Shown here: piece after piece, positions 14,900 to 24,700 of the stretch
How the letters are laid out: each line of letters begins with the position of its first letter
Numbering within the stretch: position 1 is the stretch's first letter
From: a virus
Virus genome (UHGV): UHGV-0090257
DNA: 36,853 bases
Strand: one strand, 5' to 3'
The notes under the pieces: model-generated
Told to the model about the DNA's origin: nothing
The model's input: the letters and a program-made list of their open reading frames with translations, nothing else
The model's database searches: none
Program-made: the position numbers and the translations under genes

Positions 14900-15423
14900 T
14901 TTCCGAATAGAGTGCTCATCGGTGATGTTTCAATCTGGATTGCGCCGCCGTCTTTGCCTGTTAATTCGTGAGAAGCTTGTTCTTTAAACGCCTGAACAGA
15001 AACATGCTTACCAAGAAGTTCGAGGTTTTTAACCTTATCAGGCCATTTGATTTTCTTCAGAAGTGCGGCGCTATCTGCGGATACCATCTCCACGACATCC
15101 ATTCCTGATAGCGTTGTGCGCCATACCTTAGGCCAGTCTTTAATTGGCTTTAACTCGCCGTTTTGCAGGAGAATGTCGAGCACATCCATCTGGTCGATTT
15201 CAATAAGGCGATTAAGTACATATTCTGCATTAATACCAACAAGATCATTGCGTTGCGCTTTCAGTTCGGAGATTCTTAACTTGATATCAGGTTTTGACAG
15301 GTTTTCGGATGCGGTACGGTTAGCTGTCTTTGCGCTGTACCCCGCCCGAATAGCCGCTTGCGTGGCATTTAAATCGATGAGGTACTCGCGACAGAACATT
15401 TCTTGTTTGTCGGTGAGTGCCAT
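14896..15423 (-). CDS. Terminase small subunit
   Basis: 175 aa; N-terminal MALTDKQEMFCREYLIDLNATQAAIRAGYS is typical of phage small terminase HTH domains; immediately upstream of and overlapping terL. Confidence 0.8.
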   Translation of the reverse strand: MALTDKQEMFCREYLIDLNATQAAIRAGYSAKTANRTASENLSKPDIKLRISELKAQRNDLVGINAEYVLNRLIEIDQMDVLDILLQNGELKPIKDWPKVWRTTLSGMDVVEMVSADSAALLKKIKWPDKVKNLELLGKHVSVQAFKEQASHELTGKDGGAIQIETSPMSTLFGK

Positions 15424-15449
15424 TTTTTACTTCCCATAAGGAGATTGTT

Positions 15450-15632
15450 ATGAACGATGACTTTAAAACAGGTGACATTGTTAAACTGAAATCAGGCGGA
15501 CCTGACATGACTATCAGGTCATTTTCATCTACCCACGGTAACTCTTTTCTTTGTCAATGGTTTGCTGGCAAGAAGCTTGAGCAAGGATATTTCAAACCGG
15601 AATCTCTTGAGCGCGTTACCCCAAAGCCATAG
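15450..15632 (+). CDS. Small DUF2158/YodC-like protein, antisense to the late operon
   Basis: 60 aa, MNDDFKTGDIVKLKSGGPDMTI...CQWF matches the YodC-type small-protein pattern as remembered; strong SD AAGGAG 7 nt upstream; start is only 27 nt from the divergent terS start. Confidence 0.6.
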   Translation: MNDDFKTGDIVKLKSGGPDMTIRSFSSTHGNSFLCQWFAGKKLEQGYFKPESLERVTPKP

Positions 15633-15676
15633 TCCCAAACACACCAACCTTAACTCTTGATGATATTTCATCATGG

Positions 15677-15916
15677 ATGATGTCCGTTTTATCAACAGAG
15701 GGTTGCCTTTATCAGCAGGATGTTGTGGATTATCTCGTTAAACAACATAACGAGCAGCACCTCAAAGAAAATGCGGATGGCAACCAAGCGCTATCAACAA
15801 AAGTGATTAATAAATTCAGGGTTGATAGCGGTGAAAGTGTTGTTTGGGTTAAGCCAGATAAGTACTGGCGTTTCCGTGTGCCTGAAGACGAAAACGGTCG
15901 TGAAGCTCGCGGTTAA
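15677..15916 (+). CDS. Hypothetical protein, second gene of the antisense cassette
   Basis: 79 aa ORF on the same strand as the YodC-like gene; start uncertain; ends just before the bidirectional hairpin. Confidence 0.4.
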   Translation: MMSVLSTEGCLYQQDVVDYLVKQHNEQHLKENADGNQALSTKVINKFRVDSGESVVWVKPDKYWRFRVPEDENGREARG

Positions 15917-19479: not shown

Positions 19480-20103
19480 CTAACGTGTGACCGCATTCAA
19501 AATGTTGTCTGCGATTGACTCTTCTTTGTGGCATTGCACCACCAGAGCGTCATACAGCGGCTTAACAGTGCGTGACCAGGTGGGTTGAGTAAGGTTTGGG
19601 ATTAGCATTGTTACAGCGCGATATGCGGCGCTTGCTGGCATTCTTGAATAGCCGACACCTTTGCATCTTCCGCATTCTTTCTCAACAACTCTCCCCCACA
19701 GCTCTGTTTTGGCAATATCGACCGCACGGCCTGTACCGTGGCAATCTCTGCATCTTGCGCCCGGCGTCGCGGCACTACGGCAATAATCCGCATAAGCGAA
19801 TGTTGCGAGCACTTGCAGTACCTTTGCCTTAGTATTTCCTTCAAGCTTTGCCACGCCACGGTATTTCCCCGATACCTTGTGTGCAAATTGCATCAGATAG
19901 TTGATAGCCTTTTGTTTGTCGTTCTGGCTGAGTTCGTGCTTACCACAGAATGCAGCCATTCCGAATCCGGCTTGTGATTGCGCCATCCCCATAGCAGCCA
20001 TCACATCAGTACCGGAAAGAGAGTCAGAAGCCGTAGCCCGTGGTGAGTCGCTCATCATCGGGCTTTTTGGCGAATGAAATTTAGCTACGCTTTCGAGTCT
20101 CAT
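19480..20103 (-). CDS. Q: Late-gene antiterminator Q
   Basis: 207 aa; sequence matches lambda Q as remembered ([31 protein letters not shown]...). Confidence 0.95.
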
Positions 20104-20765
20104 GCGCCTTCTCCCTGTACCTGAATCAATGTGAGGTTTCCGCAGAACACTGCGCCGGTATCTATATACATCTGGTTGGCAAACTTGAGTGGTTTCACTG
20201 CTGGCGTATGACCAAAGATGAACGTGTCCGCTCCTTTGATTTCTTTTACGATCCCGTCTTGTGAGTTGCTGATTCGTTCGCGGTTCCAGATTACCTGCTG
20301 ATGATCAACTGGCTTTCCAAACTCGTATTCGTCACAAGGATAATCGGCGTGGCAGATGACATATTTTTTACCTTTGCTCACCAGTTCAATGACTAACGGA
20401 AGTTCATCTGCTTTATGGGCAAGAGCTTTAGCCAGAATTTCTTTGTCGTAATCGAGATTAAAGAACCAGCCACCGCCATTAAACAGCCAGTGATTGACGT
20501 TTCCACGCTCTGATAAGCCATCAATCATCATTTGCTCATGGTTTCCACGTACAGCTCGGAACCAGGGGAATGTGATTAATTCCAGACATTCGACGTTCTC
20601 TGTACCGCGATCGACCAAATCGCCAACCGAGATAAGCAGGTCTTTTTTGGTGTCGAATCCTATCGTCTCCAGTTTTTCCATCAGGTTCGTGTAGCATCCG
20701 TGCAGATCGCCAACTACCCAAATATTTCGGTATTTGCTGCCATCAATTTTTTCGTAATAGCGCAT
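20100..20765 (-). CDS. ninI: Ser/Thr protein phosphatase NinI (lambda PPase)
   Basis: From the internal Met [25 protein letters not shown]... (221 aa) with metallophosphatase motifs GDLHG, GDLVDRG and GNHE; the longer six-frame ORF overlaps ninH and is not the real start. Confidence 0.9.
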
Positions 20766-20949
20766 CTCTTTCACTCCATCCGCGATGAACCATGAGAACG
20801 TCGTTGACGATGGCGTGCATTTTCCCGTCTTTATCATCAACGTATTTTCTGACCGTACCGCGACTACATTTCAGTCTGCGTGCTACTTCTGTCTGGTTTC
20901 CGTATGCTTCAACGAGCATGTCTGGAATGGTTTTTACTGAGAACGTCAT
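20743..20949 (-). CDS. ninH: NinH
   Basis: 68 aa, [37 protein letters not shown]... matches lambda NinH as remembered. Confidence 0.85.
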
Positions 20950-21557
20950 GCGGCCTCACTTCTGCTGTTTCGCAGGTCTTTGAGTTTCTGCTGATATTCC
21001 GCCTTGATGGCCCTGCACTCTTCGACAGTCCAGCGATGGCGGTTATGGTTTGATTCGATTTCGTCTACTGCTTCCTGCCCGATGCGGCTAATCAGTTCGA
21101 CGCGATACGGAACGAGATTTCCGCTTTTGTGCTGGTTGCACACCACGCATTGCTTGTGAATATTGCGTTCATCAAATCGGAGTTGAGGTGCCGCAGCAGT
21201 TGTCCGGTAATGTCCGGCATCCCACTGAGCAGACGTGAGCGTTCCGCACGAGATACATGGTAAGTCGCGGTCTCTTTCTCTGATGAAGGCGTTTACGGCT
21301 TGTTGGGCTTGTTTAATCCAGTAACTGCGGGGCTTTAAGGCGAGTTTTCGAATCTTCAGTTTATCTTTCTGTTTCTGCTCCTCTCGTCGTCGTTTCTTCT
21401 CTGCTGCTTTTTCCGCTTTTTCGCGTTCTTTGCTTCGTCGTTCGAGTGCTATCTTGGTTCCACACTCTGGAGAGCACCACCACTGATTAGCGAATGCAGG
21501 GTGAAACCATTCCCGACATTCATCGTTTTTACATCGTCTTCGCGCTGGTTTAGCCAT
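20946..21557 (-). CDS. ninG: NinG (Rap recombination-associated endonuclease)
   Basis: 203 aa, [33 protein letters not shown]... matches lambda NinG as remembered. Confidence 0.9.
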
Positions 21558-21726
21558 CGTCTTCTTCCTCGTACATTGAGCTATTCGGATCGCTCATCAG
21601 TTCTGCACAGCAGTGCTCACACACGTGAACTTCCAGCACATGCAGCTTCTGACCGCAGTTAGCGCACGTTAAAGCCCGCTCGACGCTTTCTTTCTGGTAT
21701 TGAATGGATTGAGATGGGCTAAGCAT
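21550..21726 (-). CDS. ninF: NinF
   Basis: 58 aa ORF below the 60-aa track cutoff, translated by hand: [58 protein letters not shown]; stop overlaps the ninG start. Confidence 0.75.
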
Positions 21727-22102
21727 TATTGGCCTCCTGCATCAGGAGAAAGACAATCATGGCGGCGCGGAGAGGTCTGGCATCAAATATTGGGCTTACG
21801 CCTTTTGCATCCACACACCATTCAGTTAACTGGTCTAAGATAGAAATCCTGTATTTCTCAATAATCGGCCATGAAGCGCTCGGATCATTGCAGTAGTCAG
21901 GCAAATGATTTAATGGCTCAAAAGTTGTATCAGCATTTCCGTAATACCATTTGTTGGTGTTATTCCCTGATGTTTCCGGTTTACTTGCCCAAAGGCCTTT
22001 AAAAATTATGTCTCCTACCATTCTGTTAATTTCAAAATCACTTAACTGTGAATAATCCATTGTCATTTCCTCGCACGATTTCTTAGCCACCGGATATCCC
22101 AC
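21719..22102 (-). CDS. Hypothetical nin-region protein (NinX/NinE slot)
   Basis: 127 aa ORF between the zinc-ribbon ORF and ninF; the real start may be an internal Met (MTMDYSQ...); no family recognised with certainty. Confidence 0.5.
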
Positions 22103-22205
22103 AGGTGAGCCGTGTAATTGAAGGTTTTTACGTCAGATTCTTTTGGGATTGGCTTGCGTTTATTTCTGGAGCGTTTCGTTGGAAGGTATTTGCAGTTTTC
22201 ACAGA

Positions 22206-22379
22206 TTATGTCGGTGATACTTCGTCGCTGTCTCGCCACACGTCCTCCTTTTCCTGAGGTAGTGGTAACACCCCTGTTGGTGTTCTTTCACACCGGAGAC
22301 ACCATCGATTCCAGTAAGGCTGTCCTGGTCGAAAGCGATCGTCTTCCTTTCGCTCTCCACATCGATAACAGTGCTTCAT
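22206..22379 (-). CDS. ninD: Small zinc-ribbon protein, NinD-like
   Basis: From the internal Met: [34 protein letters not shown]..., 57 aa with two CxxC pairs; NinD assignment rests on size, position and memory. Confidence 0.5.
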
Positions 22380-22966
22380 GCGATCACCATTTTGCATGGT
22401 TTAATCGCCATGCCGGGAGCCAGTTCAAAATCGGAGTCGCACTGATTTCCCCACATATCCCACCCGGTCACTTTGTCGCGGCTAAATAACTCACAGCGCG
22501 GCACGTCGCCAAGCAACTTAGCTAACATGTCTCTTACGATCGGTGGTTTTGCACTGTGCTCCATTCTCGGTGCGGTAAAGTGCTGGCATATTGAAGCGTC
22601 CATTCTCTCAGGCAACCGCCCTCGAACGGCAAACAAGCAATCCTCGCTATTTGCCCGGGTCATATGCCCCATTCCGATCGCACTGTTGCCTTTGTGCTTA
22701 TTGGTTTTGTGCCAAGTAAAGCCTTTCATAGTCATCAACCTGAATCCCCACGCCTCAATTACCTTTAGCGCTTCGGCTGGCTGTGTCGGCACCCACCACA
22801 TCGCTAACAAGCAAGATTCTGGATCCGCTAAATCCCATACTGGCAGTCGGCAAATGTCCTGAACATTCATAACATCGTATTTATGTCCAGCACCGCGATT
22901 GCCATCGTTGGCTTTGTCGCGATATTGCCAAGGTGGATCTGCGTAAATAAGTCGGTATTTGTTCAT
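22376..22966 (-). CDS. DNA N6-adenine methyltransferase, MT-A70-like
   Basis: 196 aa; catalytic DPPW motif in [10 protein letters not shown]; occupies the slot of ninC between ninB and the NinD-like ORF. Confidence 0.75.
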
Positions 22967-23406
22967 GCAGCTTTATCTCCCCATCTCGCTTTCCACTCCA
23001 GAGCCAGTCGCGCTTCGTCTGACCATTTAACGCCACGTTCTGTACCGAATGCCTGTATAAGCTCTAATAACTCCGCAAATTCGCTTACACGCATCCTGCT
23101 GGTTGACTGGCCTATTACCACAAAGCCATTCCCGGCAAGGTTAGGAACAACGTCCTGCTGCTTTAATGCTGCGGTAAACACACACTTCCAGCTTTCTGCA
23201 TCCAGCCAGCGACCATGCCATTCAACCTGACGAGAGACGTCACCAAGGCAAGCCCAAAGCTTTCGGTTTTGGTCTAAGCTGCGGTTGCGTTCCTGAATGG
23301 TTACTACGATTGGTTTGGTTGGGTCTGGAAGAATTTGCTGGATAGCTTGAATGGCGTTCTGCTGATGGATGGGGCTTCTTAGTTCAAACGTTAGTTTCCT
23401 CACCAT
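22963..23406 (-). CDS. ninB: NinB (recombination mediator)
   Basis: 147 aa, ...KLTFELRSPIHQQNAIQAIQQILPDPTKPIVVTIQERNRSLDQNRKLWACLGDVSRQVEWHGRWLD... near-matches lambda NinB as remembered. Confidence 0.9.
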   Translation of the reverse strand: MVRKLTFELRSPIHQQNAIQAIQQILPDPTKPIVVTIQERNRSLDQNRKLWACLGDVSRQVEWHGRWLDAESWKCVFTAALKQQDVVPNLAGNGFVVIGQSTSRMRVSEFAELLELIQAFGTERGVKWSDEARLALEWKARWGDKAA

Positions 23407-23547
23407 TTACGCTCCTGTAATCGTCAAGTGCAGCTGCAATAGTCCCTATCGGGTCATGGTCTTGTCCGATAATCTCATTTACGTTTTCATCTTCTTCCAC
23501 ACCGAAAAAGAATCGCAGGGCTAACATGATTTCTTCGTATGCGCTCA
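23407..23547 (-). CDS. Small hypothetical protein
   Basis: 46 aa ORF read by hand (MSAYEEIMLALRFFFGVEEDENVNEIIGQDHDPIGTIAAALDDYRSV) filling the gap between the 83-aa ORF and ninB; its stop directly abuts the ninB start. Confidence 0.3.
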
Positions 23548-23550
23548 TAC

Positions 23551-23802
23551 TCACTCCTTCACTTTGATTCCAGCGGCGCGGATGGCGTCAGCGCAATAAT
23601 CGATAGCGCAGTTGTGTCCTTTGTCGAAATCATCCTCAGCCATCACTTTGTCATCGAGTTTTATCTCGATAGCTGCGCGAGACTTAACCCATGACTGCCA
23701 GGCAATCATCTTGATGGCCTGAACGTGAAGTTCTTCGCTGCTGTTAATAGACTCGAACTCTTCACCAAACCACTCCAAAAACTGCTTTCTTGATTCGTCC
23801 AT
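23551..23802 (-). CDS. Hypothetical protein (ren-slot cluster)
   Basis: 83 aa acidic ORF in the early-right operon direction. Confidence 0.5.
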   Translation of the reverse strand: MDESRKQFLEWFGEEFESINSSEELHVQAIKMIAWQSWVKSRAAIEIKLDDKVMAEDDFDKGHNCAIDYCADAIRAAGIKVKE

Positions 23803-23813
23803 ATCAATCCCCG

Positions 23814-24014
23814 TTATGACAGGTTAATTTTCACCCAACCCTTCCCACGCACATTTGCAACAAGCCCTTTCTTTCTCAGGTATTGCATACGGCGATCGAT
23901 GGTTTCGATATACATTCCATTGCTCCGCCATTTAAGCCAGATATCAAAAACAGGTGTTGGTCTTTCACTCAGCATTGAAAGAATGTTTTGATCTAATTTT
24001 TCGTACTTGCTCAC
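23814..24014 (-). CDS. Hypothetical protein (ren-slot cluster)
   Basis: 66 aa basic ORF; stop overlaps the upstream gene start region. Confidence 0.5.
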   Translation of the reverse strand: MSKYEKLDQNILSMLSERPTPVFDIWLKWRSNGMYIETIDRRMQYLRKKGLVANVRGKGWVKINLS

Positions 24015-24337
24015 AAATACCCTCTCTCACTTAATCGCGCCCACGCTTCGTTAAACTCTTCTCGGGTTGCGCCGGATTTTCTTTCTTCAAACATCATGCA
24101 TTCGCTGATGTCTCCCCATGACTTTGGTCGCTTTTCAGCGAACAGATCATCCCATTCGAATACCCAGCGGCCTGATTTTCGGTAGTGGTAAATGGTCAGC
24201 CATGTTGTGCTGTTCGCTGGATACCCATAGAGAACTTCGACTTTTTGATCACGGTCTTTATGCTTCTTCAGCAGGATAAAGCCAGCAACCAGCGAAGCTC
24301 CGGCAAGAATGATGATTGGAATTTGCCAGTCAGCCAC
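24011..24337 (-). CDS. Hypothetical membrane-anchored protein (ren-slot cluster)
   Basis: 108 aa; N-terminal hydrophobic segment IPIIILAGASLVAGFILL; GTG start preceded by the SD GGGAGAGGGA. Confidence 0.5.
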   Translation of the reverse strand: MADWQIPIIILAGASLVAGFILLKKHKDRDQKVEVLYGYPANSTTWLTIYHYRKSGRWVFEWDDLFAEKRPKSWGDISECMMFEERKSGATREEFNEAWARLSERGYL

Positions 24338-24352
24338 AATTCCCTCTCCCCC

Positions 24353-24384
24353 AAATAAAAAGGCCTGCGATTACCAGCAGGCCT
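24353..24384 (-). terminator. tR2-like intrinsic terminator within the early-right operon
   Basis: Minus-strand sense GGCCTGC-tggtaatc-GCAGGCC followed by TTTTTATTT, between the HTH gene and the ren-slot genes. Confidence 0.65.
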
Positions 24385-24409: not shown

Positions 24410-24700
24410 TCATTGCCTTACCTCCATAAGCGCCCTATTAATAAACGCCGTCATTGGATTTGCACACCCCCACCCCGTACCATCTGGATTTCTTTTAATT
24501 GGCTCCTTCTTCACTTTGCGTTTTGCATAAATAACCGTCTTCCACTTACGCTCAACAACACTCAAATGTCCTTGTTTCACCATATGCCTTGCTGCTTGAG
24601 CGATTCTGTTATTTGGTATTCCGGTGATCAGTGCTAATTCATGTGGGGAGAATTGTTCATGAGTTTTCAGATATTCCAAGATGATTTCTTTTCCAGTCAC
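24410..24700 (-). CDS. Small helix-turn-helix DNA-binding protein
   Basis: 96 aa; SPHELALITGIPNNRIAQAARHMVKQGHL resembles a winged-helix/HTH recognition region. Confidence 0.5.
   Translation of the reverse strand: MTGKEIILEYLKTHEQFSPHELALITGIPNNRIAQAARHMVKQGHLSVVERKWKTVIYAKRKVKKEPIKRNPDGTGWGCANPMTAFINRALMEVRQ

Follow-up and report, generated by a model that had tools for sequence, protein, structure and literature searches.

Solitary adenine methyltransferases on mobile elements

The biochemically described relatives of the methyltransferase reported here are encoded by phages and a transposon. Over-production of M.EcoGV from Stx2a phages in vivo resulted in GATC methylation (Fang et al., 2012, as relayed in PMC10810198), and the enzyme has been entered as a GATC 'Dam homolog' (Forde et al., PMC6602927). 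Many relatives are also listed under GATC in REBASE (PMC10810198). The p32 protein of Serratia phage BZS1, also a member of the MT-A70 family, was found to be GATC-specific by MboI/DpnI protection in a dam- host (Bartosik and colleagues, PMC7556043). The same authors cite M.EfaBMDam of Tn1549, a beta-class member of the group to which BZS1 p32 belongs, as specific for GATC (PMC7556043). Enzymes of the beta-class/MT-A70 type work as dimers (PMC7544214).

The Stx2a-phage enzyme M.EcoPA8orf6770P (gp5 of phiPA8) was studied by Gong et al., who reported that the protein alone showed near-background SAM consumption on DNA or RNA, with dam- DNA among the substrates offered to the purified protein in vitro (PMC10810198). 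When bound 1:1 to PNB-2, the product of the gene upstream, gp5 preferred 16S rRNA and 30S subunits over DNA by >13-fold; this rRNA activity was read as SAM consumption and the modified base was unmapped (PMC10810198). The flanks of the mutagenesis primers of Gong et al. match the Stx-phage gene that was retrieved for comparison in this study, and the PA8-type PNB-2 (143 aa, phrog_1680) was recognised in three of the loci compared (L149, L151 and L152) from the terminator sequence given in PMC10810198.

Solitary adenine methyltransferases of other families are also found in prophages. M.EcoGII, a solitary beta-class m6A methyltransferase carried by a prophage, is non-specific and silent in the lysogen (PMC5778455), and M.EcoVT2Dam is GATC-specific (PMC6602927).

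An MT-A70 family gene in the nin region

The DNA analysed here (36,853 nucleotides of the virus genome UHGV-0090257, hereafter the window) belongs to a P22/lambda-like temperate phage with virion genes, a lysis cassette, Q and a nin region, and it also contains O-type and DnaC-type replication genes, an immunity region, RecT and an integrase. The gene under study is located on the minus strand (22376..22966). It is an intact ORF of 196 aa with an ATG start, and it was assigned to the MT-A70 family of N6-adenine methyltransferases by sequence profiles and fold. Directly upstream lies ninB, which encodes the Orf recombination mediator (22963..23406, minus strand; PF05772, E=2.4e-54; PHROG 72), and directly downstream lies ninD (22206..22379, minus strand; PF17466, E=9.7e-40). 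The rest of the nin operon (19480..22239, minus strand) was identified with Pfam and comprises NinE, NinX, NinF, NinG/Rap, NinH, a NinI-like phosphatase and the Q antiterminator. An earlier note on this DNA had described ninB, the NinD-like ORF and ninF-I as lambda-like, and the Pfam matches (NinB, D, E, X, F, G, H and NinI-like) agree with this in the form of a lambda/P22-like set. NinX, located between NinE and NinF (21719-22102, minus strand; PF10765), is of the P22 type, and the nin region is a lambda/P22 mosaic. Elsewhere in the window, two small ORFs on the plus strand (15417-15916), one of which matches DUF6953 (E=6e-18), are opposed to the minus-strand terminase and lysis genes and have the appearance of a moron-like insertion.

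Both borders of the methyltransferase gene are formed by ATGA overlaps on the minus strand. The overlap of the ninB stop with the methyltransferase start (22963..22966) was established from the coordinates and an alignment of the lambda junction, and the overlap of the methyltransferase stop with the probable ninD start (22376..22379) from the sequence, RefSeq and the alignment of the corresponding lambda junction. In RefSeq, an identical arrangement is annotated with a NinD of 57 aa and a 4-nt overlap, and the true ninD start is probably 22379, which gives the 4-nt overlap, and not 22397. These overlaps suggest that the methyltransferase is translationally coupled to ninB and ninD. In lambda, the slot between ninB and ninD is occupied by NinC, a 290-aa PAPS-reductase-like protein (locus L170, 1582-2454), with the same 4-nt overlaps. 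Near-identity to lambda DNA runs to GCTGCATGA, at the ninB stop and the start of the next gene, with none beyond it, and identity to lambda restarts at GCATGA, at the ninD start. As the borders of the ORF are exactly where the DNA similarity to lambda is lost and regained, ninC has been swapped ORF for ORF, and the replacement of ninC proposed in the earlier note was thereby confirmed at both gene junctions. The window gene has its position and junction overlaps in common with lambda ninC, but the two proteins are unrelated, and no PAPS-reductase-like Pfam match was found in the 196-aa protein.

The same position is used by a methyltransferase of a different family in phage 933W, where a PF05869 Dam-family gene follows ninB directly, again with a 4-nt overlap (locus L171, 3324-3851). 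The 933W/VT2-Sakai Dam (M.EcoVT2Dam type) is also a solitary phage adenine methyltransferase, but it belongs to PF05869 and has no detectable sequence similarity to the 196-aa protein; in this slot one methyltransferase seems to have been replaced by a non-orthologous one with the same kind of function. With NinC, the PF05869 Dam and the MT-A70 enzyme, three unrelated proteins have been found in this place, which suggests that the slot after ninB is a hot spot at which cassettes are precisely exchanged.

The 196-aa protein matched the Pfam family PF05063 (MT-A70) with E=4.8e-25 and 88.9 bits (cut-off 23.9), and the match was full-length, residues 4-175 being aligned to profile positions 1-172 of 172. 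MT-A70 was the only Pfam family matched. Further matches were obtained to PHROG 359 'DNA methyltransferase' (E=8e-107) and to the PADLOC Type II MTase model PDLC03262 (MTase_II; E=4.9e-70), while no NCBIfam model matched the protein. The catalytic motif IV, DPPW (residues 10-13), is encoded at 22928..22939 on the minus strand (reverse complement GAT CCA CCT TGG). In an alignment of 15 family members D10, P11, P12 and W13 were invariant, as were the residues of a C-terminal R-x-E-L-F-x-R block (R157, E159, L160, F161 and R163). The E-L-F-x-R part of this block, which we take to be the AdoMet-binding motif I by equation with METTL3, follows the DPPW near the N-terminus, and this permuted order of motifs is that of the beta class. 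A mutated catalytic motif, which the earlier note had suggested looking for, was not seen in the protein alignment, and its description of the gene product as an MT-A70-type methyltransferase of 196 aa with DPPW proved correct; the strand is minus.

Among solved structures, the best sequence matches were Tetrahymena MTA1 and human METTL3, and the DPPW of the window protein aligned with theirs. An AlphaFold2 model of the 196-aa protein (pLDDT 74.9, pTM 0.78) had the METTL3 catalytic domain and MTA1 as top Foldseek matches (E ~1e-12, TM ~0.68, range 0.66-0.69). The loops 15-30, 88-107 and 125-140 were modelled with low confidence, so that the model does not bear on specificity. Judged from profiles, motif order and predicted fold, the protein is most likely an S-adenosylmethionine-dependent N6-adenine methyltransferase of the beta class, MT-A70 clade.

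The gene was found at 95-99.8% nucleotide identity in 39 of 5426 complete E. coli genomes, in one copy each and always on the chromosome. The ORF was intact in all 39, and every listed row of these copies had the order NinB, 'MT-A70 family methyltransferase', NinD. Comparison with the orthologues of Erwinia phage 59, epsilon15, Stx phages and phiV10 indicated purifying selection (dN 0.15-0.32, synonymous sites saturated); with respect to the copy of E. coli 09-00049, dN was 0 and dS 0.008. By megablast the only GenBank phage with a DNA match was Erwinia phage vB_EhrS_59 (74%), the wider family being visible by protein search only. At the protein level relatives were present in 517 phage records, including epsilon15, phiV10, TL-2011b, Tyrion and ~120 Stx2a/Stx2-converting phages, and on 176 plasmids; a protein search returned >1000 homologues, named chiefly 'MT-A70 family methyltransferase', 'adenine methylase' or 'IME4'. 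The closest homologues in phage records were gp65 of Erwinia phage vB_EhrS_59 (82.5% amino-acid identity) and the proteins of epsilon15, phiV10 and Tyrion (70-79%), and the literature searched contained no biochemical characterisation of the Erwinia 59, epsilon15, phiV10 or Tyrion enzymes. The gene itself is already annotated in RefSeq as 'MT-A70 family methyltransferase'; the family and its likely specificity are known, and this particular member is uncharacterised.

Pfam and PADLOC scans of 38 window ORFs revealed no restriction endonuclease domain, and no endonuclease of any kind besides NinG/Rap, in line with the statement of the earlier note that no such gene is adjacent. The methyltransferase does not have the arrangement of a Type II restriction-modification system, as it is flanked by ninB and ninD and no cognate endonuclease adjoins it. 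Within the reach of profile methods the gene is solitary, although an endonuclease without a Pfam model is conceivable.

Target sequence, expression and proposed role

The earlier note had regarded the target sequence as unknown, which now appears too pessimistic: three characterised relatives are all reported to be GATC-specific, and GATC is the default prediction. The 196-aa protein has full-length homology to the GATC-specific MT-A70 subgroup formed by M.EfaBMDam, BZS1 p32 and M.EcoGV. Over residues 2-187 it shares 62-64% identity with the Stx2a-phage protein (gp5/M.EcoGV type); it is ~50% identical to gp05 of phiES15, a 70% homologue of BZS1 p32, and 42% identical to a Tn1549-like copy from E. 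faecium. The three tested enzymes diverge from each other more than any of them does from the 196-aa protein and yet all recognise GATC, which makes GATC the parsimonious prediction.

We consider it probable, if by no means certain, that the gene encodes a stand-alone, active, Dam-like m6A DNA methyltransferase that would target GATC and, from its place in the nin operon, act on replicating phage DNA. The DNA substrate and the GATC specificity we infer from the homologies described above. A homodimer is the probable working form of the enzyme, because the beta class requires dimers (PMC7544214).

Sequence specificity can change at 42-64% identity, and loop residues 86-103 differ between the window-type protein and the Stx type, NKCGKRQTDKLVMGMGS. 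An N6-adenine DNA methyltransferase with a non-GATC or relaxed specificity, giving broader protection against restriction, would fit the same family and fold evidence, and the putative substrate loops of the window protein are unlike those of every characterised relative. Small prophage methyltransferases without specificity exist (M.EcoGII, PMC5778455; Serratia OS31 p25, PMC7556043), and the bacterial MT-A70 radiation includes methyltransferases of restriction-modification systems with other sites, e.g., BglII (PMC4738411). However, non-specificity is known from enzymes of other families, and the three tested members of the clade all recognise GATC despite their differing loops. A different or relaxed specificity is therefore considered unlikely, though worth keeping in mind. 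A non-specific enzyme of the M.EcoGII kind in particular was rejected: M.EcoGII has 349 aa, a DPPY motif, a central target-recognition domain and a C-terminal FxGxG, and belongs to another family, whereas the window protein has 196 aa and DPPW.

The distribution of GATC sites in the window was also determined. There were 96 GATC sites as compared with 158 +/- 12.5 in dinucleotide shuffles, and among 4-bp palindromes only CTAG was avoided more strongly than GATC, whose observed/expected ratio was 0.52 (Markov estimate). Five GATC sites lie in the 591 bp of the methyltransferase gene, and one of these falls within the DPPW codons (22936-22939). In favour of the GATC reading, the 96 sites leave the phage with targets in need of protection. 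Avoidance of GATC would be less called for in a phage that relied on a GATC methylase of its own, and this counts against the GATC reading; in a mosaic phage, GATC avoidance neither supports nor refutes a GATC methylase. E. coli hosts already possess Dam, so the added benefit of a phage GATC methylase is not obvious. Two further points weigh against the GATC reading: the result for M.EcoGV was obtained by over-expressing the enzyme in vivo, and the purified Stx homologue alone showed near-background SAM consumption on DNA in vitro (PMC10810198).

A terminator scan identified a strong tR2-like intrinsic terminator (24361..24384, minus strand) that separates the Ren-like ORF from the nin genes and has a stem of 8 bp, six of the pairs being G-C, followed by a T run. 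The hairpin reads AGGCCTGC...GCAGGCCT and is followed by TTTTATTT; its place at 24361-24384 is that of lambda tR2, after ren. No convincing promoter was found before the methyltransferase gene. By analogy with lambda, a gene of the nin operon would be read from pR only after N antitermination, past the tR2-like terminator. Expression of the methyltransferase would be off in the lysogen and fall in the delayed-early phase of lytic growth, together with that of the recombination and replication functions.

If the protein is a GATC methyltransferase that acts on DNA, it would ensure that the fast-replicating phage DNA is fully methylated at GATC by the time of packaging. From this role and the position of the gene we infer both when it is expressed and how it benefits the phage, which would probably be by shielding phage DNA against methylation-sensitive GATC cutters of the MboI/DpnII type at times when host Dam lags behind. 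A second benefit may be that under-methylated or recombining phage DNA would escape nicking by MutH. Protection of phage DNA from host restriction, the function named in the earlier note, is plausible.

Upstream partners and comparison with known systems

The activity of gp5 with PNB-2 raises a different reading, namely that the window protein is an RNA methyltransferase acting on 16S rRNA or other RNA, which would alter host translation during phage development. Its 62-64% identity to the phiPA8-type catalytic subunit, the >13-fold preference of the Stx enzyme with PNB-2 for 16S rRNA/30S over DNA (PMC10810198) and the nature of the closest solved structures, METTL3 and MTA1, which are RNA or eukaryotic m6A writers, are consistent with this. 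The published support, however, is SAM consumption with no modified base mapped (PMC10810198), and the targeting of rRNA is ascribed to PNB-2. Searches of the window with tblastn and phmmer yielded no homologue of PNB-2 (in its 76-aa short form or its 143-aa form, phrog_1680) or of PerC-like proteins, the small ORFs nearby were assigned to PHROGs other than phrog_1680, and the gene upstream of the window methyltransferase is ninB, not PNB-2. The C-terminal extension of the Stx type, which is the proposed region of interaction with PNB-2, is absent as well: the Stx enzyme carries ~20 extra C-terminal residues, and the window protein ends ~12 residues earlier with an unrelated tail. Finally, the gene lies in the nin operon among genes of DNA recombination and not beside int. 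An rRNA-directed activity is disfavoured because the partner PNB-2 is absent from the window, and we regard an RNA methyltransferase of the phiPA8 type as improbable. A variant in which the nin-operon form would be a partner-independent m6A writer, acting during lytic growth on RNA (rRNA, tRNA, phage or host mRNA) or on both DNA and RNA, seems quite improbable too.

The genes directly upstream of the methyltransferase were surveyed in 115 related loci with 55% identity or more, a sample that is redundant. The upstream neighbour was PerC-like in 21 of the 115 loci, DUF1317 in 12, a form of PNB-2 in six and NinB in five; a few loci had other small wHTH proteins and many had unrelated singletons. 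A small gene of the wHTH/PerC type often directly precedes the relatives of the methyltransferase, and its products (PNB-2, Tyrion gp30, PerC and wHTH-PerC fusions) belong to unrelated families. Such a neighbour was seen in L003-L007, L011, L012, L091, L149-L153 and contigs resembling phiV10, loci that are redundant and give an unreliable frequency. These neighbours could be interchangeable regulators or targeting subunits.

In the window, the usual position of ren is occupied by a Ren-like/MarR-type ORF of 96 aa (24410-24700, minus strand; PHROG 1687, E=6e-40; PHROG 142). It weakly resembles the wHTH genes beside relatives of the methyltransferase (Tyrion and L091), with E values of 3e-4 to 5e-3 in a database of 14 sequences. 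Four small ORFs lie on the minus strand between the terminator and ninB (24011-24337, 23814-24014, 23551-23802 and 23384-23554; PHROGs 5903, 7185, 343 and 1603), and none of these ORFs of 23384-24337 had a Pfam match. A hydrophobic stretch was predicted at the N-terminus of the 108-aa ORF in this group. The ORFs of 96 aa, 66 aa and 108 aa were considered as dedicated partners and rejected, as no homologues were found within 4 kb on either side of the methyltransferase in other loci; the same three ORFs also had no homologues in the 20-kb flanks of the 99.8% identical E. coli copy. That the wHTH ORFs at 24410-24700 and 23814-24014 have no counterparts in the other loci carrying this methyltransferase, the 99.8% identical copy included, argues further against the RNA reading. 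Since the upstream neighbour is highly variable and the small ORFs of the window are absent elsewhere, the methyltransferase appears to travel as a cassette of one gene, without an obligate partner.

The near inactivity in vitro of the Stx homologue alone (PMC10810198) and the action of beta-class enzymes as dimers (PMC7544214) would also be compatible with a protein that is catalytically silent by itself, either a decaying passenger or a subunit in need of a further partner. Roughly a quarter to half of the related phage loci in the redundant sample have a small wHTH/PerC-like gene just upstream, as expected for such a subunit. The strong purifying selection, the invariant catalytic residues and the intact ORF in 39 E. 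coli genomes argue against silence, BZS1 p32 (PMC7556043) and M.EcoGV (as relayed in PMC10810198) worked in vivo when expressed alone, and a homodimer would satisfy the need for a dimer. We consider a silent protein highly improbable.

On its own the gene matters little, as it is one more solitary phage adenine methyltransferase in a slot known for the exchange of accessory genes, and it shows how modules can be exchanged exactly, ORF for ORF, where the ATGA junctions are conserved. If the window protein were an RNA writer, a lambdoid phage would reprogramme host translation with a minimal METTL3-like enzyme, and the wHTH/PerC neighbours of the relatives would be interchangeable targeting subunits.

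Compared with the described systems, the gene shares its immediate context with Erwinia phage 59, in which the methyltransferase gene also follows a NinB-type gene directly in a nin-like region. In the epsilon15-like phages it is located beside int, behind PerC-like or wHTH genes, and not in nin. BZS1 p32 and M.EfaBMDam of Tn1549 have the same Pfam family and architecture and, like the window gene, are solitary and carried on mobile elements. The phiES15 homologue (locus L168, 2498-3154) has DPAW rather than DPPW, and its loop corresponding to residues 90-95 of the window protein carries an insertion of 22 residues; the contexts of the phiES15 and Tn1549-like genes differ from the nin slot, one being downstream of int and the other in a conjugation module. 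M.EcoGV/gp5 resembles the window protein in being a prophage-encoded MT-A70 enzyme of ~200 aa with an N-terminal DPPW and no endonuclease, but the Stx gene is found close to int, at the distal end of the early-left region, with PNB-2 before it, whereas the window gene lies in the nin operon. The two offer a clean natural comparison of the same catalytic core with a partner in the Stx phages, for which methylation of rRNA and an influence on virulence have been claimed, and without a partner here. The partner-less nin form could help to decide whether DNA, as for Dam, or RNA is the basic substrate of this bacterial MT-A70 clade.
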